Notes under the pieces: model-generated
What the model was told of the DNA's origin: nothing
The model's database searches: none
Seen by the model: only the letters and a program-made list of their open reading frames with translations
Shown here: positions 31,655 to 64,000 of the stretch, in pieces
Numbering within the stretch: the first letter of the stretch is position 1
How the letters are laid out: the number at the start of each line of letters is the position of its first letter
DNA from: an uncultured Chlamydiales bacterium
GTDB lineage: Bacteria > Chlamydiota > Chlamydiia > Chlamydiales > Rhabdochlamydiaceae
Assembly: GCA_963700985.1 (NCBI GenBank)
Contig: OY969554.1
Location: 1,792,001 to 1,856,000 of the forward strand
Reading direction: 5' to 3'
Length of the DNA: 64,000 bases
Translations under genes and position numbers: made by a program

Positions 31655-31743
31655 GCAAATGGGGTAATTTATTACCCCATAGCCTGTCAAATTATATATA
31701 GAAAGAGGCTGCTAAGGCAGCCTCAAATCTGAGATTAAATTTT

Positions 31744-33295
<1,552 letters not shown>

Positions 33296-33751
33296 AAGAG
33301 ATCGTAGGTTTACCTACATTTTCTAAGGTTGAGACAAGCTTCTCTCCCTCTCCACGTCACTTCCCTTCTGCTGTCAAAACAACAGATACAAAATCTGAAA
33401 GTTGAATGATGAAGAATGAATTTATTTCATACTTCTGACTTCTTCCTTCACGTTTTGTTTCGCTATCTCGAAAGATTGATAATGAGAATCAGAGAAGAGA
33501 ATCCTATTAAGGGTTTTGTTTCTTCGCAAGAAGAGCAATTCCCGCGGACCTAAGATATGATAGGTCCGAAACAAGCGTAAATATGAGCATCAAATTGCTA
33601 CAAACGGCGCTTGAGGAGAAGTACTTCACACATTTGTGTAAATAGGTGTTAGGAATGGCGTAAGCAAATAAGTAGACTGAATAGCGACCTATATCTCTTA
33701 TGAGACTAGGAAGCGTTCAGAAAGCTCAAATTAGTAGCGTATAAAGTTAAG

Positions 33752-36699
<2,948 letters not shown>

Positions 36700-36868
36700 T
36701 TTTTTTCTTTATATCGCTGGCTTTTCTCCTAATTTTAGGAGAATCGCCAGTGATTAACGCGTCAGACCTAACACCCTTGCAAAAGTGGGTGGAGGAAATC
36801 TCTTTCAAGCGCCTTTTATAGCAATTAAATGCTCCGCTGTTTTAGTAGGAAACAAAATATCTCGATTC

Positions 36869-36986
36869 ATCTTGGTGACCATAGAGAAGGGGAAATACCT
36901 GATCCCATCCCGAACTCAGAAGTCAAGACCTTCATCGCCGATGGTACTGCACACAAGAGTGTGGAAGAGTAGGACGTCGCCAAGAT
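36869..36986 (+). rRNA. rrf: 5S rRNA
   Basis: Terminal helix ATCTTGG/CCAAGAT, CCTGATCCCATCCCGAACTCAGAAG, GCCGATGGTACT. Confidence 0.97.
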
Positions 36987-43343: not shown

Positions 43344-43610
43344 ATGGCATTGAAGAATACAATCAACGCAATGAGAACCCTTCTTGAAGGGATTTGCGGA
43401 GATTTAGAAAAATCTGAAGCTGGTAATAGAGCTGCTTCGCAAAGAGTGCGCACCTCATCAATTAAATTTGCCAAGATCAGCAAACTCTATCGTAAAGAGT
43501 CGATTGCAGAGGAGCGCAAAGGTGGCAAAAGCGGTAAAAAAGCCAAGTCAACGGCTAAGGCTGCTAATTCTAAAAAAGCTAAAGCTAAGCCTGCAGCTAG
43601 AAAAAAATAA
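43344..43610 (+). CDS. hctA: Chlamydial histone H1-like protein Hc1
   Basis: MALKNT...DLEKSEAGNRAASQRVRTSSIK...YRKESI plus K/A-rich tail. Confidence 0.92.
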   Translation: MALKNTINAMRTLLEGICGDLEKSEAGNRAASQRVRTSSIKFAKISKLYRKESIAEERKGGKSGKKAKSTAKAANSKKAKAKPAARKK

Positions 43611-51755: not shown

Positions 51756-53576
51756 TTATTGGCGTTCAACCAGCTTTTCGAGAATCTGGCTTGAGCGCGT
51801 GACGTACTCAGAAAGTGCAGAGGGCTCGAGCTCTTTTTGCGAGAGCAGCGAGAGATCATAAAGATGGCGGACCATCTCTTTGGCCAGCGCAGGTTCTTTA
51901 TTCTGCATCGAATAGAGTCCCGAGATCAATTTGCTATTGGTATTGACTACGAAGGTGCGTTTGCTGGTGATACTTGGCGGTAAATTCTGGCCGGTCATGG
52001 CCATGTAGTCGCGCATGCGTCTTAGCTCTTCATCGAGCACAATAAAGCTTGGCAGTGTGTCACTGGTTAAACTCTTGGCTTCGACTTCTACTTTTTCTAA
52101 GTTAAGGGAAGCGCGGATGAAATCAGCGATCTTGCCCGCTTGGGTCTTGCCGTCGGCATCCAGAAGGGTTTTTTCGCGCGTGCTATCTAGTGTCGCGCTG
52201 TCGATCGCGCCATCTAGACGTTGAAATTTAGCCGGCTGGAATTTTTCTTCCAGAGTGTTCATCAGCGCAGTGTCAACCGGTGAAGTGGCAAAGAGAACTT
52301 CATGGTCTTTGTATAATTCGAGCAGATGTGAAGGTGTTTTCTCTTCGGTGGTATAGAAGATCTTCTCCTTTGTTTTCTCGCGGTTGCGCGCAAGATACTC
52401 TTCGGTGGTGGTCCACTCGCTTTTAGTATTTTTCCAGATGAGAGCGCTTTGTACGCGCTCGTAGAACTTCTCATCTTGAATCGCTCCGAGTTTGACGATG
52501 AGTTCGATATCGGGCCATGCCTCTTCGAATTTTGCGCGGTCAGTTTGATAGAGGCTGACTAAGCGGTCTGAAACTTTTTTAGAGACGTGCGCCGCCAGCT
52601 GTCTAACGGTGCGGTCCATCTGCAGTGTGCTTCTGGAGACGTTCAAGGGGATATCAGGGCTGTCGAGCGCGCCTTGTAGCACGGCTAGATATTCAGGGAT
52701 CAAATCTTTGCAATTGTCAGATACGAAGACACGGTTGCAGAAGAGTTTGATGTTTGCGCGGTTCCAATCAAAGCGTTTTTGGATTTTAGGGAAGAAGAGA
52801 ATGCCTTTGAGATTGAATGGATAGTCGACATTTAGATGGATCCAGAAAATCGGCTCTGGCTCCATGGGGTAGAGATCGCGATAAAAATCTAGGTAGTCTT
52901 GATCTGTGCACTCAGAGGCGTTTTTTAGCCAGAGGGGGTCTTTGTGGTTGATCTTCTCGCCATTTAAATAGATAGCAAAAGGCAAAAATGCGCAGTACTG
53001 TTTGAGGATCTGCTTAATGCGATTTTCTTCTAGGAACTCATCGCTTTCTTTATCGACAAAGAGAGTGATCTCTGTGCCGCGCATCTCACGTGTGCCTTTA
53101 TCGATGGTGTAATCTGCGGAGCCGTCGCACGACCAGAAAACCGCTTCTGCATCTGCACGATACGAAAGAGTATCGATTTCAACTTTAGTGGAGATCATGT
53201 AAGCAGAATAGAAACCGAGGCCGAAATGGCCGATGATCTGATCTTGCTCATTTTGGCTTTTGTATTTGCTTACAAACTCTTCTGCGCCAGAAAAAGCCAC
53301 TTGAGCGATATATTTTTCCACCTCTTCATGGGACATACCGATACCAGTATCGATGAACTTTAAAGTGCGGCCTTCTTTATCGATCACGAGGTCGATGCGC
53401 AGCTCTTCATCCGTTGTCTCAGCTTCTTTTTGCTCTCTTAGAATACGCAGCTTATGCAGGGCGTCGCAGGCGTTGGAAACAAGCTCACGGATAAAGATAT
53501 CCTTGTCGCTGTAGAGCCATTTCTTGATAATAGGAAGAAGATTTTCAGTGTGGATCTTTAGTTTTCCGAGGGCCAT
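51756..53576 (-). CDS. htpG: Chaperone HtpG (Hsp90)
   Basis: FIRELVSNACDA, DTGIGM, IGHFGLGFYSAY, PLNVSRS. Confidence 0.97.
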   Translation of the reverse strand: MALGKLKIHTENLLPIIKKWLYSDKDIFIRELVSNACDALHKLRILREQKEAETTDEELRIDLVIDKEGRTLKFIDTGIGMSHEEVEKYIAQVAFSGAEEFVSKYKSQNEQDQIIGHFGLGFYSAYMISTKVEIDTLSYRADAEAVFWSCDGSADYTIDKGTREMRGTEITLFVDKESDEFLEENRIKQILKQYCAFLPFAIYLNGEKINHKDPLWLKNASECTDQDYLDFYRDLYPMEPEPIFWIHLNVDYPFNLKGILFFPKIQKRFDWNRANIKLFCNRVFVSDNCKDLIPEYLAVLQGALDSPDIPLNVSRSTLQMDRTVRQLAAHVSKKVSDRLVSLYQTDRAKFEEAWPDIELIVKLGAIQDEKFYERVQSALIWKNTKSEWTTTEEYLARNREKTKEKIFYTTEEKTPSHLLELYKDHEVLFATSPVDTALMNTLEEKFQPAKFQRLDGAIDSATLDSTREKTLLDADGKTQAGKIADFIRASLNLEKVEVEAKSLTSDTLPSFIVLDEELRRMRDYMAMTGQNLPPSITSKRTFVVNTNSKLISGLYSMQNKEPALAKEMVRHLYDLSLLSQKELEPSALSEYVTRSSQILEKLVERQ

Positions 53577-53674
53577 ATTTTAAATCTCAAGTTGTGTTAT
53601 TTATTGGAAATGATCCAAGTGCTGAAGTTTGATGTCAAGCGAGCGCTCGAAAAATAGGCTAAAAAAAAGATATT

Positions 53675-55321
53675 ATGCGAATTCTAGCTGCCCAGCTTAA
53701 TCCAATCGTGGGAGATCTTGAAGGAAATACGTTAAAAATTCTTCAAATCCTCGAGAAGGCCCGCATCCAAAAAGCCGATATCGTAGTTTTTCCTGAGCTG
53801 GCTATTTGTGGTTATCCACCGGAAGACCTCTTGCTACATGCCTCATTTATCGAGGCGATCGAGCCCCAACTTGAAAAAATTATACATGCTTCTGCAGGGC
53901 TAATGGTGGTGGTAGGGCTAGTGCGCAAGAACCCCTCACATACAGAAAAAGCGCTGTTTAACAGCGCGGCAATTATTCAAGATGGCAAGTTGGTTGGTTA
54001 CGAAGATAAGTGTTTATTGCCTACATATGACGTGTTTGATGAGCGCAGATATTTTGAGCCAGGGAGCTCGATTAAACTCTGGGAGTTCAAAGGAAAGAAA
54101 GTCGCGGTCATGATTTGTGAAGACATTTGGCAGCACTTTGGGTGGCAACACTCAGGTGTTGAGTTCACTCACTATTTACGCGATCCAGTGGCTGATTTAG
54201 CCTCTTCCAAACCAGACTTTTTGATTAATATCTCCGCCTCGCCCTATCAATTTCAAAAACCCAGTGTGCGTTTGGAAGTGTGTGCCAAAAGCGCTAAAAC
54301 TTTAAAATGCCCAGTGATTCTCTGCTGCCAAGTAGGGGGCAATGATCAGTTAATCTTCGATGGATACAGTCTCTGTGTTGATCAAACGGGCACACTGCGG
54401 CAAGTTGCAAAAGGGTTTGAAGAAGATCTTCTGCTCGTCGACCTCAATGCGCTGCCACCACCGTCTACATTTACGTCCGATGCTGTTGAAGATCTCTACC
54501 GCGCGCTGGTTTTAGGTGTGCGCGATTATTTTCATAAGTTAGGTTTTAAAAAAGGATGTCTCGGTTTATCAGGTGGTATCGATTCTGCATTGGTGGCATG
54601 CATAGCGGTCGATGCACTTGGGAAGGAGAATGTCTTAGCGATAGCAATGCCTTCGCGGTATAGCTCTGAAGCAAGTTTATCCGATGCAAAAGAACTTACG
54701 CGTAGGTTGGGGATCAATCTCGTTGAAGTGCCCATTGAGGCACCATTTGACTCCTATTTAAATCTCTTAGAACCTCACTTCGAAGGCAAAAAGCCTGACG
54801 TCACTGAAGAGAATTTGCAAGCGCGCATCCGTGGCATCATCCTAATGGCATTTTCCAATAAGCTAGGCTACATCGTAATGAGTACGGCCAATAAGAGCGA
54901 AATGGCTATGGGTTACTCCACACTTTACGGAGATATGTGCGGCGGGCTTGCGGTGATTTCTGATGTAACCAAAACGCAAGTCTACACAATTTGTCGTTGG
55001 CTCAATCGCAAAAAAGAGCTTATTCCGCAGGCGATCATCGATAAACCTCCCTCCGCAGAGCTTAGGCCAAATCAGAAAGATTCAGATACGCTACCCGATT
55101 ACGCCATCGTCGATGCTGTGCTGCAAGCATATGTTGAAGAGTTTCATGCGCCTGAAGAGATCGCTGAAAAACAAAAACTTCCCTTAGATCTCATTCTCGA
55201 TTTGATTCACCGAATTCATCTCGCCGAATACAAACGGCGTCAAGCCGCACCTGGCATACGTGTTAGCAAGAAAGCTTTCCGTGTCGGACGAAGGTATCCT
55301 ATCGTTCAGCAATGGATGTGA
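53675..55321 (+). CDS. nadE: Glutamine-dependent NAD+ synthetase
   Basis: Nitrilase domain (FPEL, K, ICEDIW) plus GLSGGIDSA, ENLQARIRG, PPSAEL. Confidence 0.97.
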   Translation: MRILAAQLNPIVGDLEGNTLKILQILEKARIQKADIVVFPELAICGYPPEDLLLHASFIEAIEPQLEKIIHASAGLMVVVGLVRKNPSHTEKALFNSAAIIQDGKLVGYEDKCLLPTYDVFDERRYFEPGSSIKLWEFKGKKVAVMICEDIWQHFGWQHSGVEFTHYLRDPVADLASSKPDFLINISASPYQFQKPSVRLEVCAKSAKTLKCPVILCCQVGGNDQLIFDGYSLCVDQTGTLRQVAKGFEEDLLLVDLNALPPPSTFTSDAVEDLYRALVLGVRDYFHKLGFKKGCLGLSGGIDSALVACIAVDALGKENVLAIAMPSRYSSEASLSDAKELTRRLGINLVEVPIEAPFDSYLNLLEPHFEGKKPDVTEENLQARIRGIILMAFSNKLGYIVMSTANKSEMAMGYSTLYGDMCGGLAVISDVTKTQVYTICRWLNRKKELIPQAIIDKPPSAELRPNQKDSDTLPDYAIVDAVLQAYVEEFHAPEEIAEKQKLPLDLILDLIHRIHLAEYKRRQAAPGIRVSKKAFRVGRRYPIVQQWM

Positions 55322-55439
55322 ACGGAACCGTCGATGACCCTCCTTTGAGAGAAGAGTTCTCCAAATTAGTAACGCGTTAATTCCATGATTTCTGTACACT
55401 AGTTACCTTTATTAATTTTTTTAAATCAAAAGGTAGTTT

Positions 55440-55988
55440 GTGGCAGGTGTAATATTATCTAGTTTAGACAGCGTTTTAGATCACGTAACGGCGCAGATAG
55501 ATTTAGTGGTGGATTTGTTAAAAAATGGTGATAACGCTGAAGCAACACGGCTCTTTAAACTGTCAATTCATCCTTATCTCGGGGATTTAGATAGTTCAGG
55601 AAGGATAGAATATAAAGCATGCCGAGCGATGTTCCTGCCTTCCAGTGATCTTGAGCGGGCAAGGAAGATTATTAAAATTGCTGAGCACTATTTTCTTGGC
55701 TATAAATGTCGAGTAAACTTGAATCCAGAACCCGAGCCTTTAAGAGAAGAACCTGAAGAACCTATTGTTATACAGATACCAAAGCTAGTTTTACCTGCAT
55801 TGCCAGAAAACAAATCGCAACCAGCCGCTTTTGTTGCAGTTTCCAAAAATGCTGCTCTGCCAAGGCCTAAGGAGAATCTCATGACATCTGATGAAATTGT
55901 GGAAGTAGATGATGAGGTTGCAGCGATCATGGGAAACTTAGATAAGGAACTTGAAATGGCCCGTTTACTAGCAACGACTTATAACTAA
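55440..55988 (+). CDS. Hypothetical protein
   Basis: 182-aa ORF filling the gap between nadE and the exporter; no motif recognised. Confidence 0.55.
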   Translation: MAGVILSSLDSVLDHVTAQIDLVVDLLKNGDNAEATRLFKLSIHPYLGDLDSSGRIEYKACRAMFLPSSDLERARKIIKIAEHYFLGYKCRVNLNPEPEPLREEPEEPIVIQIPKLVLPALPENKSQPAAFVAVSKNAALPRPKENLMTSDEIVEVDDEVAAIMGNLDKELEMARLLATTYN

Positions 55989-56011
55989 TCAAGAATTTGC
56001 GTGCTAATTTG

Positions 56012-58951
56012 TCAGAGCTCTTGGCGTTTTAGCATTTCGGCGAAGAGGCCTTTGGCTGCAGCGAGTTCTTTATACGTGCCAACTTCGATGATTTTTCCTT
56101 GATCCATCACATAGATACGATCGGCGTTGCGTGTAGTGCTCAGCCGGTGTGCGATCATAACGCGTGTGATATTGAGCTCGGTTAAATTTTTGTCGATTAG
56201 ATTTTGAGATGTATTATCGAGCGCGCTTGTCGCTTCATCGAGGATGAGGATTTTTGGCGAAGCAGCAAGTGCCCTAGCCAGATATAGGCGTTGCCGCTGC
56301 CCTCCAGAGACTGTATTGCCTCCTGTCGACATGACCGTATTTAATCCCATGGGTAAGGCTTTAAGGTCATCATCTAAATTGGCCATATGGATGGCTTTTT
56401 GAATGTCCTCAATGGACAACACCTTAGATCCTGCGATGATATCATAAATGCTCCCGCCTAACATGCCTTCGTTTTGAAGAACGGTGCCTATCTGTTTTCT
56501 AATTTGGCGGATGTCGTAATCAAAAATACTACGATCGTCAAAGAGAATTTCACCTTGTTCGGGTGTTTCGAATCCGAGCAGAAGTCTAACGATGGTCGAT
56601 TTGCCGCATCCTGAAGGGCCCACAATCGCAATCATTTCGCCAGGATGAGCGAAAAGGGAGACATTATCCAATGCGAGTGGCCCATCGGGAGAATAACGGA
56701 AATTGACATGCTCAAGCGCAATGGAACCTTTGAGCACGATGGGCGCACTCTTTTCAGGTAACGCTTCAGTTTCCGATTGAACGAGGACTTTTGATCTCTC
56801 CCAATAGGGCAGAACAGTCCAGATTGAAAATGCCATTTGGAAGACTTCGAGCGCGGAAGCTATTAAAAGCGCATAGGCAGTATAAAAGCCTAAGAAAGCT
56901 CCGAGCGACTGCGAAGGGTTTATCGAGGATGAGACTTTTGGATCGTTGCGGAATGTGATGATTGCTACCCAAAAGAGGAGTGTGGCCATGAGCACAGGAA
57001 AGATCCGATAGACAAGTCTTTCAATTGCGGTAACGATAAGCAGCTTTAAATCGATCTTCTTTTTCTGGCTGAAGACATTTCCCCATAAGCTAAAAAAGCG
57101 GCCCTCTGCGCCTGAGATGCGGATTTTTGCGATGCCGGAGATGATCTGTACGACGATTCCCTGAATTGTGGTTCCCAAAGCGAAACTCTTTTTGGTCAGT
57201 CTGACTTCTATGGCAATGCAAAGAGTAAAAACAAGAGCGGCTACGAAGAGGCCGATTAATCCTATGGTGGCAAATTTTGAATTATAAGCGAAAAGCATCG
57301 CGAAGTAATAAAGGCAGAAAATGGAGGTCACGCAAAGATTTATGAGATTAGAGCTAGTCTCGTAGCGAACTTTTTCGTAAGCCATGATCCGCGTAATGAG
57401 GTCACCCGAGGTGAACTTGCGAAAAAATGAGAGTGGGAGCTGAAGGACGCGTAACCAGAGACCAGTTTGCATTTCGCTTTTAGATAATCCTTCGATTCGC
57501 AATACGAGAAAATTTTTGCAAAAAGTATAAATTGTCGTGCTAAATGAAACCAGGAGCAGTCCGAGCACAAATTGCTTAAAAAGAGAGATATCTGTTCCAA
57601 AAAGGATCTTGTCGAAGAGCTCTCGCGTAGCAAAAGGAAGAAACAGGTTGAGAGAGCCGATGACTATCGCAATAAAGAGAATCCAAACAAAATTCTGTTT
57701 ATTGTATTCAAACGAGAACTTTGCAATGCGGAAAAGGGTCATTTCTCCTTGTGGAAATCCTCGATAAAAAACGTAGGCGCGCTTGGAAAGCTCTTTGGCT
57801 AGCAGAGGGGTAAGTGTTAGCCTTTTTTTCTCTTGAAGATCGACAATCTCATAATTGTTTTTGATGGGCATCAAAGCCACAGGGCGCTGCTCTGGGCCAA
57901 AGAATCCCAAAAGTGGTTGCATGGCCTCTTTCCACCACCGACCCTTCAAAGTAATGCGACGGAAGTTGATATTGCTATTCAAGCAGATCTCGATCACTTC
58001 ATCATCGACTGTCGTGGCTTTTGTGGGCGTATTATCAAAGCTTAGCCCCATTGTTCGACCAATTAGATCGCACGTTTGAAAAAGAAGGTCTCCTTGATGC
58101 AAATGCGCAACCGTGATCTCTTCATTTAAAACAGAGCCGAGGCTGAGCAGCGTCTGCTCGATTAAGTCTTCTTCAAGGGTCTGTTTCTTTTGCAACCTTA
58201 AAAGGGCATTTTCTAGCTCTTCATTCTTCTGTTTGACGACAGTTTTAAAAAGCTCATATCCTAGTGCTTCAATTCCTTTCCAAAATTCAGGTTTCTCCAA
58301 AGCTTGAGTGGTTGAAAAAGTTGCCAGAGTCGATTCTACTTCACTTCTCAACCAGTGAGATTGCGTGATAGGATAGAGAGTTCCAGTTTCTTTGAAGAAT
58401 AAAGAGGAGGCTTCATCTAAAAAGCTGCAACTGCCTTTCAATACCTCTACCCAAAAAATGTGCTCTTTTTCTTCTGGTGTGAAGGATTTTTGTGGGCCAG
58501 CGACTTCTCCTGGCTGTAGATCTGTATTTTCACCTACTTTAAGCACCTTTTCAATGCGCTCTTCTCGATGTGGAAAAGGCGAAAATATTCGATGGATGTA
58601 ACTCTCGAGTAATTTGATAATGCTCTCTTTTAGGACAGCATCCTTAGCCATCTCTGCAAGCAGGGTATTTGCGGAGACTTTACGCAGCGTTGTTTTTCGC
58701 GGAGAGAGGAAAAAAAGGCCGTAGTTTTTTTCTTCAGATGTAGCTCTTCCCAGGATTAGATCGCCCTGTTTGATATGCGCGACAAAAATAGGTAGAAAGT
58801 GGGGATCTTTTGGATCGTAGAGAAATAGATCTCCAACCTCTTGCTCCATCACCCAAACAGTGAAGGGTTCATTGAGATTGTAGCGAACGCTGGCTTCAAG
58901 CGAGATCTCTTCGCCAATATGTGATGGCAGCACGAGTGAGCTATCTTGCAT
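56012..58951 (-). CDS. NHLP/NHLM bacteriocin-system ABC exporter, permease/ATPase without an evident C39 peptidase
   Basis: RRITLKGRWWKEAMQPLLGF...PVALMP segment typical of NHLM transporters, TM domain, GPSGCGKST, VSGGQRQR, LDEATSALDN; adjacent to NHLP precursors. Confidence 0.9.
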   Translation of the reverse strand: MQDSSLVLPSHIGEEISLEASVRYNLNEPFTVWVMEQEVGDLFLYDPKDPHFLPIFVAHIKQGDLILGRATSEEKNYGLFFLSPRKTTLRKVSANTLLAEMAKDAVLKESIIKLLESYIHRIFSPFPHREERIEKVLKVGENTDLQPGEVAGPQKSFTPEEKEHIFWVEVLKGSCSFLDEASSLFFKETGTLYPITQSHWLRSEVESTLATFSTTQALEKPEFWKGIEALGYELFKTVVKQKNEELENALLRLQKKQTLEEDLIEQTLLSLGSVLNEEITVAHLHQGDLLFQTCDLIGRTMGLSFDNTPTKATTVDDEVIEICLNSNINFRRITLKGRWWKEAMQPLLGFFGPEQRPVALMPIKNNYEIVDLQEKKRLTLTPLLAKELSKRAYVFYRGFPQGEMTLFRIAKFSFEYNKQNFVWILFIAIVIGSLNLFLPFATRELFDKILFGTDISLFKQFVLGLLLVSFSTTIYTFCKNFLVLRIEGLSKSEMQTGLWLRVLQLPLSFFRKFTSGDLITRIMAYEKVRYETSSNLINLCVTSIFCLYYFAMLFAYNSKFATIGLIGLFVAALVFTLCIAIEVRLTKKSFALGTTIQGIVVQIISGIAKIRISGAEGRFFSLWGNVFSQKKKIDLKLLIVTAIERLVYRIFPVLMATLLFWVAIITFRNDPKVSSSINPSQSLGAFLGFYTAYALLIASALEVFQMAFSIWTVLPYWERSKVLVQSETEALPEKSAPIVLKGSIALEHVNFRYSPDGPLALDNVSLFAHPGEMIAIVGPSGCGKSTIVRLLLGFETPEQGEILFDDRSIFDYDIRQIRKQIGTVLQNEGMLGGSIYDIIAGSKVLSIEDIQKAIHMANLDDDLKALPMGLNTVMSTGGNTVSGGQRQRLYLARALAASPKILILDEATSALDNTSQNLIDKNLTELNITRVMIAHRLSTTRNADRIYVMDQGKIIEVGTYKELAAAKGLFAEMLKRQEL

Positions 58952-59027
58952 CTTCTCTTTCCCTCTATGTTTGTCACATTAGAGGAATAGAGTCATTTCA
59001 GCAAGCCACCCTTAATATGAAAAGATG

Positions 59028-59142
59028 ATTTAACCACAGAGGCACAGAGAACGCAGAGTAAAGAAGGAAGATTATTTTTTTGTTTCTCTTACAAAAAACG
59101 GCTTCTTTCTTCTCTGTGTCCTCTGTGCCTCTGTGGTTAAAT
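59028..59142. repeat. CACAGAG-type palindromic element, copy 2, in the divergent exporter/ycaO intergenic region
   Basis: 22-bp perfect inverted repeat ATTTAACCACAGAGGCACAGAG / CTCTGTGCCTCTGTGGTTAAAT. Confidence 0.88.
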
Positions 59143-59193
59143 TATTTAAGATTTATTTTGATTTTTGAGGGGTGTTGTGCAAAATGCAGATCT

Positions 59194-60507
59194 ATGCAGC
59201 CAATTTTTTTTCGTGGAACACCATTTTCAGCGCGCAAAGGCTTCTTTGAGGGGACTCATCGCATCCAAAGCCCTGAGCAGACTTGGAAGCAGATTGCACC
59301 GCTTGCACCTTTAATTGGAGTGTCTCGGGTTGCGAACATCACAGGTTTAGACAAGATTGGCATTCCAGTGACGATTTCGATTCGGCCTGGGGCTTTCACG
59401 TTATCTATCTCTTCGGGCAAGGGCCTCTCTCTGGTAACTGCGCAGGTCTCTGGCCTAATGGAATCTTTGGAAGTTTTCTGTGCAGAAACAGCCAATCTTC
59501 CCTACCTTCTTTTTTCCTATAACGAACTGATTAAAAGATATACGGCGCCGCTTTTAACCCATTTATCTTATCGATCTCACGCGTTATTTCATCCTGATCT
59601 GCCGGAAAAATGGGTTTTAGCATGGGATCTATTTGGACAAGAAGAGGTGGCAGTTCCTCTGCAAAGCGTCATGCAAGATTATCGCGTAAGCAGAAATGAA
59701 AATCAGGAGCTTTACTCAATTCGCATGGACACAAATGGCCTGGCTTCAGGATGCCATTTTTTAGAAGCAGTTGCCTCCGGGGTTTATGAACTCATCGAGC
59801 GCGATGCGATGAGCTGCTATCTCGCTCTTAAAGAGCGCCACCATCAGCCATTGAAAAGAGTGAAGCTTGATACGATCCGGTATCAGAGTGTGTTAGAAGC
59901 TCTGGAACAGATTGAAAGAGCAGGAGTTCAAACCCTCTTATACGATTGCACGGTGGATACTGAAGTGCCCGTATTTAAGGCCTCTATTTATGATAAGCAC
60001 CTTCGCCATAGTATGGGCATCTGCGAAGGCTATGGCGCACATCTCGATCCAGAGGTAGCCATGATTCGTGCCATTACTGAAGCCGTTCAGGGAAGAACCA
60101 TCGCGATTTCGGGCTCCCGAGATGACATTTTTATGTCACAATTCAATGCCATGAAGAAGAATGATGTAGCTGAAATTATTCAAATCATCGAAGCCAATCC
60201 TGCTACCATCGATGCCGCTTCTTATACATCTGGTGCAGGTGCCACTTTAGAAGAAGATATTCACATTCTCATGCGTAAACTTAAAAATGCCGGCCTTTCA
60301 CAACTGCTGGTGTTCGACTTAAGCCAGGAAAAACTGGGCATGTCTGTGGTACGTGTCATTATCCCGGGTCTAGAAGGATACTATTCTCGTAATTTTGATC
60401 CGGGATTAAGAGCTAAGAAGTTTATCTCAGAAAGAGCAACTACAATTAAAAAAACGCCATGCGATCAAAGAGAAGGTACGCACTTTCCTGCAGGAGCGCT
60501 TTTATGA
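59194..60507 (+). CDS. ycaO: YcaO-family enzyme, TfuA-associated (thioamide-forming) type
   Basis: GTHR, GVSRVANITGLDKIGIP, SGKG...MESLE, TNGLASG, YELIERDA, RAITEAVQGR...SGSRDD, VVRVIIPGLE; no C-terminal PxP motif. Confidence 0.95.
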   Translation: MQPIFFRGTPFSARKGFFEGTHRIQSPEQTWKQIAPLAPLIGVSRVANITGLDKIGIPVTISIRPGAFTLSISSGKGLSLVTAQVSGLMESLEVFCAETANLPYLLFSYNELIKRYTAPLLTHLSYRSHALFHPDLPEKWVLAWDLFGQEEVAVPLQSVMQDYRVSRNENQELYSIRMDTNGLASGCHFLEAVASGVYELIERDAMSCYLALKERHHQPLKRVKLDTIRYQSVLEALEQIERAGVQTLLYDCTVDTEVPVFKASIYDKHLRHSMGICEGYGAHLDPEVAMIRAITEAVQGRTIAISGSRDDIFMSQFNAMKKNDVAEIIQIIEANPATIDAASYTSGAGATLEEDIHILMRKLKNAGLSQLLVFDLSQEKLGMSVVRVIIPGLEGYYSRNFDPGLRAKKFISERATTIKKTPCDQREGTHFPAGALL

Positions 60508-61898
60508 CCATTTCTCCCGATGATATTCTCATTTTTCTTGGACCATCTCTTCCAGTTGAAGAGGCAAAATCAATCTTAGATGCCCGCTATCTCCCGCCGG
60601 CCAAACAGGGAGATATTCTGAGCGTTGCAGTGCAGTTTCAACCCAAAGTTATCGGATTGATCGATGGAACCTTTATGCAGACCTTATCGGTGTGGCATAA
60701 AGAGATCCTCTATGCGATCGATCAGGGGATCATCGTATTAGGAGCCAGCAGCATGGGCGCGTTGCGCGCAGCTGAAACCGCTGACTTTGGCATGATCGGG
60801 GTTGGAAAAGTCTTCGAGCTCTACCATAATGGCACGGTGATCGATGATGATGAAGTTGTGCTCATCCACGGGCCCAAGGAAGAAGGCTATATTCCGCTTT
60901 CCCTTCCTCTGATTAACATACGTTTTACCTTAGAGCGCGCTAAAAACGAGCAGAGAATACCTGCGGATGTTTGCGAGGCCTTCTTTGCGCTTGCACAAGA
61001 GCTTTATTATCCTGAAAGAACCATCGAGAACATTATTGAGTGCGCTCGTAAAAAAGGCTTTTCAGAAGAATTAATCGGCGATGTCACTGGGTGGATGCAA
61101 GCACACTATGTCGATCAGAAAGCTGATGATGCACGCCTTCTCTTACAAAAAATCAAAGCTCTATCTCTTTCAGAGACAGTAGAAAAAAAAGAATTTTCAA
61201 GGACATCGCTTTTTGAGGTGCTCTTTCATGCAGATAGGCGCCTCTCTTTCTCCGAAGTTGAGCTTACCCAAAGGCAGATTGCTCAGCATTTTGCGCTTCA
61301 TGATCCGCATTTTCCAGAGATGCAGTTCAATGCGATGAATCAAGCTATGGCCAATGCGCTTTCTAAAATTTACAAGGTTGAGGTTTCCGTTGAGGAGATC
61401 AAAGAGGAAAAAAAGCGCTTTCGCAGACGCCATCTGCTTCAGGAAGATTGGATGTGGACATCTTGGCTTGTACGCAATCATTTAACCGAGAAAGAGTTCT
61501 CTTCTCTTGCAGAAGAAAAAGCAAAAACACGCAAGCTTCACGCCTGTTTTTCCAGTGGGCAATTTCCTTGGAAGCAGGGAAAGTTTTTACTTAACGAGCT
61601 TAAATGGGCTGATCGATACGAAGAGGGCCTAGAAAAAGCAGTTGCACAGGAAGAAATATTAAACGAAATCGCCCGCTATTACAATGAGACTGATTCATCA
61701 GAAATCTATCAAGCAAAGTTCATCGACGCTCACAAGGAGGCGACTGGCTGGAATCCCGATATGCCTCTTAAGGAGTGGGCCGAAGAAGCTGGCTTCGAGG
61801 ATCTTTTAAAGCTTGTCACGGAGATTCACAAATCTAAGATCGCGCGCGATCATCTTAATAAGATAGTCGAAGCCGGCCTTGACGAAGCCAGTCAATAA
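60504..61898 (+). CDS. tfuA: TfuA protein with long C-terminal extension
   Basis: IFLGPSL, PPAKQGD, LIDG.F, SVWHKEIL, GASSMGALRAAE, DDDEV; ATGA overlap with the ycaO stop. Confidence 0.95.
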   Translation: MTISPDDILIFLGPSLPVEEAKSILDARYLPPAKQGDILSVAVQFQPKVIGLIDGTFMQTLSVWHKEILYAIDQGIIVLGASSMGALRAAETADFGMIGVGKVFELYHNGTVIDDDEVVLIHGPKEEGYIPLSLPLINIRFTLERAKNEQRIPADVCEAFFALAQELYYPERTIENIIECARKKGFSEELIGDVTGWMQAHYVDQKADDARLLLQKIKALSLSETVEKKEFSRTSLFEVLFHADRRLSFSEVELTQRQIAQHFALHDPHFPEMQFNAMNQAMANALSKIYKVEVSVEEIKEEKKRFRRRHLLQEDWMWTSWLVRNHLTEKEFSSLAEEKAKTRKLHACFSSGQFPWKQGKFLLNELKWADRYEEGLEKAVAQEEILNEIARYYNETDSSEIYQAKFIDAHKEATGWNPDMPLKEWAEEAGFEDLLKLVTEIHKSKIARDHLNKIVEAGLDEASQ

Positions 61899-61929
61899 CC
61901 ACAATTTTGCGACCGATCAGGACGAGAAA

Positions 61930-62208
61930 TTACTCCAAAGTCCAGATTACTACTTGTGTAGCCGCTGCCGCCGCAATTTGTTTTAAATCTGCCTCATCAA
62001 GTTCGGTGGCATTGGTGGGAGCTGGCGGTAAAAGAAAAGTGAAATGACGCGCATCGTCTTCTTGAATACGCACTTCAACATTGGCAGGAATGTCATAGCC
62101 CATTTCTTTTAAGGTCTCTTTAGGCTTAGCGATGAGTTTTTTGCGAAAAGCTGGATCTTTCCAAGCTTTTGCAATAATTTTTGCCCTTATGTCTTTATTT
62201 TTTGGCAT
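61930..62208 (-). CDS. NHLP-leader RiPP precursor 6, core about AATQVVIWTLE
   Basis: IIAKAWKDPAFRKKLIAKPK...FTFLLP...ELDEADLKQIAAA leader. Confidence 0.93.
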   Translation of the reverse strand: MPKNKDIRAKIIAKAWKDPAFRKKLIAKPKETLKEMGYDIPANVEVRIQEDDARHFTFLLPPAPTNATELDEADLKQIAAAAATQVVIWTLE

Positions 62209-62292
62209 ATTCTTTCTCTTTGTTAGTTAACTTTTATCTAAATAAATTGAGGCTGGTCTTGGTAATGCTAGTCATTGAGGGTTCAGCTCCTC

Positions 62293-62571
62293 TTAATCTC
62301 TCTTTAACTGGCGGGCTGCAACAAACCCTGCAGCAGCAATTTGTTTCAGTGCAGCTTCATCCAGCGTTTGAGCATTCTTAGGTGCAGCCGGTAAAACAAA
62401 AGTGAAATGACGTGCATCGTCTTCCTGGATACGCACCTCTACGTTAGCAGGAACGTCGTAGCCTATTTCTTTTAGAGTTTCTTTGGGCTTAGCGATGAGT
62501 TTTTTGCGAAAAGCTGGATCTTTCCAAGCTTTAGCAATAATTTTTGCTCTTATATCTTCACTTTTCGGCAT
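62293..62571 (-). CDS. NHLP-leader RiPP precursor 5, core about GFVAARQLKRD
   Basis: Same leader. Confidence 0.93.
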   Translation of the reverse strand: MPKSEDIRAKIIAKAWKDPAFRKKLIAKPKETLKEIGYDVPANVEVRIQEDDARHFTFVLPAAPKNAQTLDEAALKQIAAAGFVAARQLKRD

Positions 62572-62621
62572 ATTCTTTCCTTGTTTTACTGCGTAACCAG
62601 TTAGAGAGAAGAGGATTTTTC

Positions 62622-62900
62622 TTATTCTGGTCTTATTTGTAGGCCATAAGCAAGACCGGCCGCTGCGAGTTGTTTTAGCTCTGCTTCATCCAGCTCCTGA
62701 AAGTCCTTAGGAATGGCTGGTAAAACAAAAGTGAAATGACGCGCATCGTCTTCCTGAACACGTACCTCGATGTTCGCGGGGGCTTCATAACCCATTTCTT
62801 TTAAAGCCTCTTTGGGCTTAGCGATGAGTTTTTTGCGAAAAGCTGGATCTTTCCAAGCTTTAGCAATAATTTTTGCTCTTATATCTTCATTTTTTTTCAT
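62622..62900 (-). CDS. NHLP-leader RiPP precursor 4, core about GLAYGLQIRPE
   Basis: Same leader. Confidence 0.93.
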   Translation of the reverse strand: MKKNEDIRAKIIAKAWKDPAFRKKLIAKPKEALKEMGYEAPANIEVRVQEDDARHFTFVLPAIPKDFQELDEAELKQLAAAGLAYGLQIRPE

Positions 62901-62923
62901 ATTTTCATTTCCTTAAAATGCAT

Positions 62924-63199
62924 TCATCTTGATCCAAGACGGAACCCTACACCCCGACCTGCAGCAACGTTCTTCAACTCCGCTTCATCCAGCTCGGTGA
63001 TGTTTTTAGGAGCAATCGGCAACACAAAAGTGTAATGACGCGTATCATCTTCCTGGATACGCACCTCTACGTTGGCAGGAACGTCGTAGCCCATTTCTTT
63101 TAGGGTCTCTTTAGGCTTAGTGATGAGTTTTTTGCGGAAAGCTGGATCTTTCCAAGCTTTAGCAATGATTTTGGCTCTTATGTCTTCATTTTTTGACAT
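62924..63199 (-). CDS. NHLP-leader RiPP precursor 3, core about RGVGFRLGSR
   Basis: Same leader, ending VAAG. Confidence 0.93.
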   Translation of the reverse strand: MSKNEDIRAKIIAKAWKDPAFRKKLITKPKETLKEMGYDVPANVEVRIQEDDTRHYTFVLPIAPKNITELDEAELKNVAAGRGVGFRLGSR

Positions 63200-63230
63200 G
63201 TTCTCTTCTCTTTAGAATATTTATTTGTAC

Positions 63231-63512
63231 TCAATGAGGAAATCCACCACCACAAAAAATCCAGACACTCCCAGCAGCAACTTGTTTTAGCTCTGTGTCA
63301 TTCAGTTCGCCGAGATTAGTGGGTGCAGGAGGCAGGGGGAAAGTGAAATGACGCGCGTCATCTTCTTGTATACGCACCTCTACGTTAGCAGGAATGTCAT
63401 AGCCCATTTCTTTTAGAGTTTCTTTGGGCTTAGCGATGAGTTTTTTGCGGAAAGCTGGATCTTTCCAAGCTTTAGCGATGATTTTGGCTCTTATATCTTC
63501 ATTTTTTGGCAT
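63231..63512 (-). CDS. NHLP-leader RiPP precursor 2, core about SVWIFCGGGFPH
   Basis: Same leader, ending VAAG; start corrected to MPKNED at 63512. Confidence 0.93.
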   Translation of the reverse strand: MPKNEDIRAKIIAKAWKDPAFRKKLIAKPKETLKEMGYDIPANVEVRIQEDDARHFTFPLPPAPTNLGELNDTELKQVAAGSVWIFCGGGFPH

Positions 63513-63525
63513 TTTTTCTTTCCTT

Positions 63526-63588
63526 TCATAGTGCATCCACTCCAATAACGTGCCCCTGACCCGCAGCAGCAATCTGCTTCAACTCTGC
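63526..63588 (-). pseudogene. Leaderless seventh precursor cassette AELKQIAAA-GQGHVIGVDAL*
   Basis: Manual translation starting 2 nt after the precursor 1 stop reproduces the leader end and gives a new 11-aa core with its own TGA. Confidence 0.8.
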
Positions 63589-63590
63589 GA

Positions 63591-63872
63591 TCAATAAACG
63601 TTCTTTGCAATGTGCCCCATGCTCTGACCCGCAGCAGCAACTTTCTTCAACTCTGCTTCATCCAGCTCGTTGATGTTTTTCGGAGCGATCGGCAATACAA
63701 AAGTGAAATGACGTGCATCATCTTCTTGTACACGCACCTCTACGTTAGCAGGAATGTCGTAGCCCATTTCTTTTAGAGTTTCTTTGGGCTTAGCAATGAG
63801 TTTTTTGCGGAAAGCTGGATCTTTCCAAGCTTTAGCGATGATTTTGGCTCTTATATCTTCATTTTTTGGCAT
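63591..63872 (-). CDS. NHLP-leader RiPP precursor 1, core about GQSMGHIAKNVY
   Basis: Same leader; SD AAGGAG upstream; ATG 63872. Confidence 0.93.
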   Translation of the reverse strand: MPKNEDIRAKIIAKAWKDPAFRKKLIAKPKETLKEMGYDIPANVEVRVQEDDARHFTFVLPIAPKNINELDEAELKKVAAAGQSMGHIAKNVY

Positions 63873-63922
63873 ACACACTTCTCCTTGTGTTGTTTATCTC
63901 TGTGTAGGCGATCTCTTGCTTT

Positions 63923-64000
63923 TTATAAAGTATTTTTTTGAAGAGCTTCGATTCCACCAATCAGAGAAAAGATGTTTTCTAAGCCTTTGCTTTTCAAGGC
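63923..64000 (-). CDS. 3' end of a gene ending in a rhodanese-like motif (partial; continues beyond the window)
   Basis: Translates ALKSKGLENIFSLIGGIEALQKNTL*, matching the rhodanese C-terminal pattern L...G..NV.SL.GG..AW. Confidence 0.6.
   Translation of the reverse strand, partial: ALKSKGLENIFSLIGGIEALQKNTL

Follow-up and report, generated by a model that had tools for sequence, protein, structure and literature searches.

Gene content of the locus

The locus described here lies at the end of a 64,000-nucleotide stretch of DNA (the window, G000:C1:1792001-1856000) from the genome of an uncultured Chlamydiales bacterium of the Rhabdochlamydiaceae, and carries genes for a predicted system of peptides synthesised ribosomally and modified post-translationally (RiPPs) whose precursors have leaders of the nitrile hydratase leader peptide (NHLP) type. 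The genome (G000) is one closed contig of 2,067,302 bp, 99% complete with 0.77% contamination. Open reading frames (ORFs) were mapped over window positions 52000-64000; the cluster is cut by the window edge and continues for about 16 kb beyond it, in a stretch (L020) whose position 1 is window position 64001. Judged by its genes alone, the whole locus, about 24 kb long, is reasonably likely to form a single hybrid cluster for RiPPs with NHLP leaders on their precursors (Table 1). Literature is cited by PMC identifier, for the passages that bear on the point at hand.

The initial annotation of the window had listed a translationally coupled ycaO-tfuA pair, a divergent NHLP-type ABC exporter and a convergent array of six precursors. 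Hidden Markov model (HMM) searches with YcaO, TfuA, TIGR03793 and TIGR03797 models found all of these elements where they had been placed, and chance matches are excluded for them because curated model cut-offs were exceeded. The overlap of the ycaO TGA and the tfuA ATG as ATGA (60504-60507), together with the PF02624 and PF07812 matches, bears out the coupling, and YcaO covers the PF02624 profile in full (1-325 of 325), which indicates a complete YcaO domain.

The exporter, which matches TIGR03797 from the minus strand opposite ycaO, had been rightly recognised, but two more transport genes lie farther on, for HlyD and for an ABC1 that carries a C39 peptidase; all three exceed their cut-offs, and the NHLM export set is complete. 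TIGR03797 (NHLM_micro_ABC2) spans residues 288-977 of ABC2, which also matches Pfam ABC_tran and ABC_membrane. The N-terminal ~287 aa of ABC2 (window 58091-58951) match no Pfam or NCBIfam family; ABC2 proteins of like length (963-1007 aa) are found in Nitrospirota, Nostoc and Actinomycetota loci.

The supposed absence of a dehydratase was an artefact of the window edge, as a full LanM begins 1.6 kb past the window end, with complete dehydratase and zinc cyclase domains (TIGR03897 positions 23-931 of 932). The other absences first noted (radical SAM enzyme, azoline dehydrogenase, decarboxylase) held for the scanned cluster: there is no dehydrogenase gene among the cluster ORFs, and general family scans gave no radical SAM match among the cluster proteins, no dedicated genome-wide radical SAM search having been made. 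Aligned with LicM2, the LanM has the GFSHG and WCHG motifs in common with it, and CCG in the place of the LicM2 CHG. A three-Cys zinc site is the mark of the substrate-tolerant ProcM group, and on this basis the enzyme is called ProcM-like.

Table 1. Positions of the cluster genes and of other features (aa, amino acids; L020 position 1 is window position 64001)
Feature	Position	Strand	Description
rRNA operon	window 31742-36985
Hc1 histone gene	window 43353-43520		PF07432, 61.5 bits
ABC2 exporter	window 56012-58951	-	979 aa, without peptidase domain; TIGR03797 714 bits, cut-off 709.4
Inverted repeat	window 59025-59145		34 nt, 91% complementary, 53-nt spacer; divergent ABC2/ycaO intergenic region
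ycaO	window 59194-60507	+	437 aa from ATG at 59194; PF02624, E 2.9e-70
tfuA	window 60504-61898	+	long form, 464 aa; PF07812, 151 bits
NHLP precursor p1	window 61930-62208	-	TIGR03793 75.6 bits; tail ...KQIAAAAATQVVIWTLE
NHLP precursor p2	window 62293-62571	-	TIGR03793 77.1 bits; core FVAARQLKRD
NHLP precursor p3	window 62622-62900	-	TIGR03793 77.0 bits; core LAYGLQIRPE
NHLP precursor p4	window 62924-63199	-	TIGR03793 83.4 bits; core RGVGFRLGSR
NHLP precursor p5	window 63231-63512	-	TIGR03793 74.4 bits; core SVWIFCGGGFPH, only local core with Cys
NHLP precursor p6	window 63591-63872	-	TIGR03793 81.3 bits; core QSMGHIAKNVY
thiF 3' end	window 63923-64000 (last 78 bases)	-	gene extends to extrapolated 64981
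thiS	L020 981-1226	-	81 aa, ThiS/MoaD; PF02597, 59 bits; ends ...PPVAGG
NHLP precursor p7	L020 1269-1547	-	TIGR03793 above cut-off
LanM	L020 1643-4495	+	950 aa, class II; TIGR03897 817 bits, cut-off 304
PPTase-like gene	L020 4676-5344	+
Thiolase	L020 5339-6526	-
Non-ribosomal peptide synthetase (NRPS)	L020 6551-11974	-	1807 aa, T-C-A-T-TE
ABC1 with C39 peptidase	L020 12190-14394	-	TIGR03796 931 bits, cut-off 853
HlyD	L020 14391-15698	-	TIGR03794 190 bits, cut-off 156

Precursor leaders and cores

All six precursors of the convergent array (p1-p6, 91-93 aa each, facing tfuA) score above the TIGR03793 cut-off of 50.9 bits, with values of 74.4-83.4, and the model is positive in none of 14 control genomes. 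Twelve matches were found in the genome, namely the seven of the cluster, three with the same leader at 44-46.5 kb and two divergent ones at 1437-1439 kb. The ten same-leader precursors each consist of a nearly constant leader of about 80 aa, ending ...ELKxxAA(A)G, and a core of 8-12 aa that is hypervariable. In 9 of the 10, the last residues of the leader are AAG or AAAG, a double-glycine-type motif, p1 having AAAAA. For the seven local precursors, DNA identity averaged over pairs is 0.81 in the leader versus 0.31 in the core (0.79 versus 0.28 for all ten), and the drop falls at the AAG codons.

Cysteine is present in three of the ten cores (p5, d1 and d2, and thus in one of the seven local ones), Ser or Thr without Cys in five, and none of the three residues in two (p2 and p3). 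Because they lack Ser, Thr and Cys, the p2 and p3 cores would be open to backbone chemistry only. The LanM could accordingly close rings in at most three cores, and would be unable to touch two, which would leave backbone thioamidation as the only chemistry encoded here that can act on all ten; a single YcaO-TfuA pair may modify them all.

The three distant same-leader precursors (d1-d3; L021:8187-15966, or G000:C1:44187-51966; cores IASWFFPC, GEVLCGHLSM and QAQHAFTTGLDL) are separated from the cluster by about 240 kb that include the origin of numbering, and are interleaved with a gene for a cyclopropane-fatty-acid-synthase-like methyltransferase (PF02353, 301 bits), followed by one for a 1760-aa RHS/YD-repeat protein. 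The two divergent NHLP-like precursors (L022:9079-12090, or G000:C1:1437079-1440090) have tails ...VSGAGDDYFPH and ...FAAGGEGPSDYISDKYIHYGK, and each is followed by a paralogous ORF (363 or 373 aa) that has no Pfam match. Atlas features of the 363-aa protein are nearest to unnamed clusters (0.96) and, farther off (0.88-0.90), near ABBA aromatic prenyltransferases (PTase_Orf2, Trp_DMAT, DUF5838); a second RiPP system, whose Tyr-containing cores would be prenylated, may be encoded at this locus.

YcaO, TfuA and the predicted sulfur relay

By its family, the YcaO would be an ATP-dependent enzyme that activates backbone amides. Its best NCBIfam model is TIGR03266 (McrA-glycine thioamidation YcaO), with 237.4 bits against a cut-off of 365, and its best solved relative is 6pe3 (MJ1094; E 6e-35, aligned residues 20-396), so that both the closest curated and the closest solved relatives are methanogen thioamide-type YcaOs. 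TfuA scores 225.9 bits on NF033432 (cut-off 235.2). As far as sequence comparison can say, both proteins are relatives of the characterised enzymes and not McrA-type equivalogs, which is expected for RiPP-associated enzymes.

The cluster ThiF (352 aa) is a MoeB/MoeZ-type E1 with a rhodanese tail (PF00899, 238 bits; the rhodanese match is weak, with 20.3 bits). Its best NCBIfam models are MoeB (289 bits) and MoeZ (255 bits), over residues 7-349, and the MoeZ coverage reaches the rhodanese part. Because the cluster ThiS is the sole PF02597 match in the closed genome, because whole-genome searches gave no match for MoaE and nothing above the cut-off for ThiG, and because the searches for all three were positive in 11 to 14 of 14 control genomes, the cluster ThiS and ThiF are judged to stand outside thiamine and molybdopterin synthesis. 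Thioamide-forming YcaOs outside sulfidic habitats tend, according to passages of PMC13063428, to use a thiocarboxylated ThiS homologue and a TfuA hydrolase; the mechanism is described there and in PMC9576775. A role for ThiF as a docking protein of the Ocin-ThiF-like kind was considered and rejected, its best matches being MoeB, MoeZ and UbaA-type E1s and a GG-ended ThiS being encoded next to it.

These data also bear on the idea that the YcaO forms azolines or amidines, as in the dehydrazoles, with ThiF as its docking partner instead of an E1. Such a reading draws on the existence of hybrids that combine NHLP, YcaO and LanM-type elements, the dehydrazoles themselves (PMC10676384, in part), and on ThiF-like docking partners reported for azoline systems in passages of PMC6511847. 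We regard it as very improbable here: ycaO is coupled to tfuA, the MoeB/MoeZ-type E1 stands beside a GG-ended ThiS, the cluster has no dehydrogenase gene, with the azoline-type model TIGR03604 the YcaO reaches only 118 bits (cut-off 219), Cys, Ser and Thr are scarce or absent in most cores, and the zinc ligands of the LanM are kept, unlike those in the class III-like cyclase domain of LanMbC as presented in PMC10676384.

Related loci within Chlamydiota

The YcaO was used as a query over 401 sampled genomes of the phylum, G000 included. An orthologous YcaO was found in 8 of the 401, at 47-58% identity and in three families; the other 16 matches (~25-33% identity) belong to a different type of about 750 aa. 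Some 38 kb were fetched around the gene in six of the seven relatives, G336 being dropped for its 1.7-kb contig. In these six loci, YcaO is always followed by a long TfuA (436-457 aa); ThiS and ThiF are adjacent in five, and ABC1, ABC2 and HlyD-like genes occur in four. LanM and NHLP genes accompany the module only in the same-genus genome G031.

In four relatives (G060, G308, G247 and G324), all 10 of the genome-wide matches to Nif11-type leaders lie directly beside the YcaO module, with no LanM nearby. These Nif11 leaders end in ...ELxxxAAG, the same motif as in the NHLP leaders studied here, and the cores have 14-24 aa. This neighbourhood is the strongest evidence that the four-gene module of ycaO, tfuA, thiS and thiF may act on leader-bearing peptides without depending on a LanM. 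In G031, the cores beside tfuA lack Cys and those beside LanM are Cys-rich, a split that fits two maturases sharing one leader family.

The same loci were weighed for the possibility that the cluster is a prochlorosin-like class II lanthipeptide system, in which LanM would be the maturase and the YcaO-TfuA-ThiS-ThiF module would act elsewhere or on one or two cores. The LanM match of 817 bits with its CCG zinc motif speaks for it, as does the pairing of NHLP leaders with the three-gene NHLM exporter, a combination with which LanM is classically associated; in G031, moreover, ThiS, ThiF and LanM are co-directional, with Cys-rich cores near the LanM, and LanM exceeds its cut-off in more genomes of the phylum (13/400) than have this type of YcaO. 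We nevertheless hold it to be rather unlikely, given that so few cores here contain Cys (1/7 local, 3/10 in total), that two without Ser, Thr or Cys are beyond the reach of a LanM, and that four other chlamydial genomes pair the module with Nif11 precursors with no LanM nearby.

In G053 (L045:17651-19974), the YcaO is shortened to 316 aa beside an intact long TfuA, and neither ThiS nor ThiF was found within the 38 kb fetched; this module may be decaying.

Related loci in other phyla

A TfuA alignment scan with one genome per species gave 565 relatives, of which the best 80 loci were kept; they were annotated by BLAST comparison with the proteins of the cluster and by HMMs for which the chlamydial NHLP and Nif11 genes served as input. 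Counts over these 80 loci are descriptive, since the loci were chosen by similarity, the relatives are non-independent and the HMMs are narrow. The TfuA match ended at position 430 or later in 38 loci (long), at 330-401 in 23 (intermediate) and at 240 or earlier in 19 (short), and NHLP or Nif11 precursors were present in 15/38, 2/23 and 0/19 of them, respectively. LanM adjoins TfuA in 6 of the 80 (Gemmatimonadales, Longimicrobium, Actinomycetota, Nakamurella), and ThiF is present in 14. The same architecture was met in cyanobacteria (Nostoc), Nitrospirota, Gemmatimonadota and Actinomycetota.

A quick maximum-likelihood tree of YcaO (SH-aLRT support) was built from 63 rows: 55 from the 80 loci, one from G000, five from relatives and two as outgroups. 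In it, the chlamydial rows and one record labelled Verrucomicrobiae form one clade (93), sister to four cyanobacterial rows (89) and then to two Nitrospirota rows (94), and all of these lie within a 36-row clade with a support of 99.

It was also considered whether the module thioamidates a structured cellular protein, as happens with McrA and uL16, the precursor array then being unrelated. Thioamidation by YcaOs is established for McrA in methanogens and for uL16 in E. coli (PMC13063428, in part), and the best curated match of the YcaO is an McrA-type model. The uL16-type YcaOs, though, have no TfuA nearby according to the same passages; the present module adjoins leader-bearing precursors and peptide exporters across chlamydial families and other phyla, and its presence in only 8 of the 401 genomes of the phylum is unlike a housekeeping modification. 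Such a protein target therefore appears a quite improbable explanation.

Nif11 cores beside long-TfuA modules (L051, L052, L059, L062, L063, L064 and L076) often start with S/T-x-W, as in SSASW, GVTTW, ATTAW, RTTSW, GAGTW and TSASW, and continue as a hydrophobic tail rich in Ala, Gly, Val and Ile and free of Cys, even where a LanM is adjacent. S/T-x-W may be a true substrate motif of the long-TfuA enzyme clade.

The C-terminal domain of the long TfuA

Residues ~1-225 of the cluster TfuA form the TfuA domain, and residues ~235-464 a helical C-terminal domain that is conserved among long TfuAs. The solved methanogen TfuA (6xp8, 217 aa) aligns to residues 9-220 only. A model of the C-terminal domain based on 29 sequences (pLDDT 90.7) predicts a beta-hairpin followed by about eleven helices. 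A word-based homologue search with this part gave only 5 matches, and a profile search of 1.84 billion representatives found the domain in 1544 proteins at E <= 0.001, at least 627 of which still match at E <= 1e-10. Among the best 150 domain matches, a TfuA domain stands in front in 99 of the 99 proteins of 420-530 aa and is also present in both longer proteins, while the 49 shorter ones look like fragments. By these sequence matches, the domain is a common, TfuA-specific appendage, for which no published function was found in the literature.

In a VIA search with the domain, PEB4, SurA, PrsA, a PrsA-like E. faecium peptidyl-prolyl isomerase, trigger factor and PpiD took 9 of the top 13 rows. 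Language-model features place the domain near SurA_N clusters (0.89-0.91, on only 86-107 shared features). A prediction of the complex of the domain with an NHLP precursor scored 0.00, below the mark, and is counted neither for nor against. As a lead only, the domain could help to hold the unfolded precursor. A wider proposal is possible but doubtful: a long TfuA with an undescribed substrate-holding domain, similar to SurA or trigger factor, would replace the usual RiPP recognition element, one YcaO-TfuA pair would introduce thioamides into whatever short core comes after a leader of the NHLP or Nif11 type, and very short, combinatorial, protease-resistant thioamide peptides would be secreted by an obligate intracellular bacterium into the host cell or against competing microbes.

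Genomic context

The placement of the window in Chlamydiae is consistent with its Hc1 histone gene, its rRNA operon and the nearest named relatives of TfuA, which are Chlamydiota, Parachlamydiales and Simkania records. A chimeric contig at this locus, which the initial annotation had left as a concern, is unlikely, because the genome is closed, the GC content of the RiPP part (0.446) matches that of the whole genome (0.448) and a same-genus genome carries the orthologous module.

The inverted repeat between ABC2 and ycaO belongs to a palindromic element whose 20-mer core, TTAACCACAGAGGCACAGAG, has 32 genome-wide occurrences at <=2 mismatches, with 11 of them as inverted pairs less than 200 bp apart (60-170 bp); it is also found in the window at 13220-13239, and 0 copies are expected in window shuffles. 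The element is a MITE-like or REP-like dispersed repeat (miniature inverted-repeat transposable element, repetitive extragenic palindrome), and a dedicated operator upstream of ycaO was rejected for this reason. Between nadE and the ABC2 gene, a 182-aa ORF (55440-55988) matches nothing in Pfam or NCBIfam and is probably outside the cluster. The adenylation domain of the NRPS encoded between LanM and ABC1 is interrupted by ~480 aa that match no family.

Proposed pathway and its weighing

Taken together, the gene families suggest an intact cluster whose probable task is to produce and export a family of short peptides modified with sulfur, encoded by many precursor genes that are nearly identical. 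The pathway that we propose, to which we give a probability of roughly 0.6, is leader-guided backbone thioamidation through a dedicated ThiS thiocarboxylate relay, with LanM acting on cores that contain Ser, Thr or Cys, followed by C39 cleavage and export. Seven local and three distant genes would provide peptides with a near-constant leader of ~80 aa and a hypervariable core of 8-12 aa. ThiF would adenylate the C-terminal Gly-Gly of the dedicated ThiS, leading to a thiocarboxylate; the TfuA domain would hydrolyse this ThiS-COSH and pass sulfide to YcaO, which would use ATP to activate a backbone amide of the core and exchange its O for S, yielding a thioamide. Being directed at the backbone, such chemistry could work on cores with unrelated side chains. 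The ProcM-like LanM would dehydrate Ser and Thr and, where a Cys exists, close a lanthionine ring; the C39 peptidase domain of ABC1 would then cut after the AAG-type motif, and ABC1, ABC2 and HlyD would export the short modified peptides.

This pathway was drawn from the observed gene content, gene families, gene order, conservation of the module beside precursors, and contrast between leaders and cores; each chemical step, the identity of the modified cores and the holding of precursors by the TfuA C-terminal domain are what we infer from them. The thioamide-RiPP reading first given to the window keeps its essential parts, a TfuA-coupled YcaO beside an NHLP array, to which the ThiS/ThiF relay and the occurrence of the module beside Nif11 precursors can now be added. 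What had to be given up is the pure thioamide system, replaced by a hybrid with two maturases since a LanM is present.

Several results count against the proposed pathway. YcaO and TfuA fall below the cut-offs of the McrA-type equivalog models (TIGR03266, NF033432), though these are their best matches, and no cluster protein could be tied to the reading of the NHLP leader. The chaperone-like matches of the TfuA C-terminal domain are weak, their VIA Z scores of 4.2-7.1 being in a range common for helical models, and a Foldseek search of the PDB with the domain model gave no match at E <= 0.001. Most cores lack the S/T-x-W start common elsewhere (p5, d1 and perhaps p1 resemble it), and only some of the cores here may be substrates. 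Scans of positions 58800-64000 gave promoter-like and terminator-like sites at chance level (6 versus 7.2 expected and 10 versus 6.4 expected, respectively), and therefore no operon claims are drawn from them. A search for sequencing runs over window 59000-64000 listed none from RNA. Finally, the cluster is split between LanM and ABC1 by a low-GC NRPS block (L020 4676-11974; 0.387 versus 0.448), which may be a later insertion.

This interruption would also suit an unexpressed or decaying relic of horizontal transfer that makes no product, as would the patchy distribution in the phylum, the presence of the dispersed palindromic element in the ABC2/ycaO promoter region, and the state of G053, with its 316-aa YcaO and no ThiS/ThiF in the stretch fetched. 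However, the reading frame is open in each of the 13 RiPP genes and the 7 local precursors, full-length orthologues with 45-57% identity exist in five relatives, and the RiPP part has the GC content of the genome, and a relic is considered improbable.

Should the proposed pathway be true, it would give the first defined product class of the clade that joins long TfuAs with Nif11 or NHLP precursors, a large and widespread clade (cyanobacteria, Nitrospirota, Gemmatimonadota, Actinomycetota and PVC bacteria, that is Planctomycetes, Verrucomicrobia and Chlamydiae). It would also offer a naturally occurring example of backbone thioamidation that is guided by a leader and independent of side chains, and its enzyme would be useful as a tool for protease-resistant peptides. 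Some environmental chlamydiae would then keep a self-contained sulfur relay only for exported peptides, which suggests that these serve within the host cell or in competition inside hosts such as amoebae.

Comparison with known systems

The combination had initially been regarded as uncharacterised in an obligate intracellular lineage, a claim of novelty that proved too strong. NHLP-type (nitrile-hydratase-domain) precursors with TfuA genes appear in Actinobacteria as 'Network 7' in passages of PMC6511847; CCRG-2/Nif11 precursors and MoeB are placed in TfuA clusters of Bradyrhizobium and Nostoc in parts of PMC8120280; and PMC10676384 mentions a dehydrazole-type cluster of Nakamurella that has a YcaO-TfuA pair in addition. 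NHLP leaders are not rare in the phylum either, TIGR03793 exceeding its cut-off in 39/400 genomes, and chlamydial surveys mention 'RiPP-like' and 'proteusin' calls (passages of PMC9666466 and PMC13229535), among them an antiSMASH 'proteusin' cluster in one chlamydial genome (PMC13229535). The main texts of these two surveys do not contain the terms TfuA, YcaO or thioamid, nor does that of Malit 2021 (PMC8120280), supplements aside, contain 'Chlamydia'. A full-text literature search, in which supplementary tables were not covered, returned no characterised product of an NHLP/Nif11 thioamide cluster, and none in Chlamydiae. Systems of this kind had been predicted before in other bacteria, with no characterised product found.

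The clusters of Santos-Aberturas 2019 and Malit 2021 have, in the parts consulted, the same leader family with YcaO-TfuA and sometimes MoeB; they are predictions in Actinobacteria, Bradyrhizobium and Nostoc, unlike the chlamydial host here. The radical SAM maturase of the proteusins was not met here in general scans, no dedicated genome-wide search for it having been made. The prochlorosins (ProcM, marine cyanobacteria) resemble the present system in having one LanM with a CCG zinc motif, many precursors, in part at distant loci, whose leaders are conserved and whose cores are hypervariable, and a double-glycine-type cleavage site with a C39 ABC exporter; they differ in that most cores here have no Cys, which makes lanthionine rings impossible, that the cores here are far shorter, and that a thioamidation module is embedded in the cluster.

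In the dehydrazoles, an NHLP leader, a YcaO and a LanM-family enzyme likewise occur in one cluster (PMC10676384, in part), whereas the present cluster has a single TfuA-coupled YcaO, no dehydrogenase, a zinc-binding class II LanM and cores poor in Cys, Ser and Thr. The nocathioamides also combine a lanthipeptide enzyme and YcaO-TfuA thioamidation in one pathway, but that enzyme is of class I, the host is Nocardia, the leader is of another type and there is a single product family (PMC8362196).

The thioamidation systems (McrA thioglycine; thioviridamide and thiostreptamide; thiovarsolins) have, as here, a YcaO coupled to TfuA and to sulfur delivery of the ThiS/ThiF type (passages of PMC13063428 and PMC9576775), and the nearest solved YcaO and TfuA are methanogen proteins. 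The TfuA of the present cluster is longer at its C-terminus by a domain of ~230 aa that the solved TfuA, with its 217 aa, does not have. Compared with the thioamitides, the precursors here have NHLP leaders, a multi-gene array and very short cores, there are no decarboxylase or kinase/lyase dehydratase tailoring genes, and the cluster comes with a full NHLM export set in a chlamydial host.

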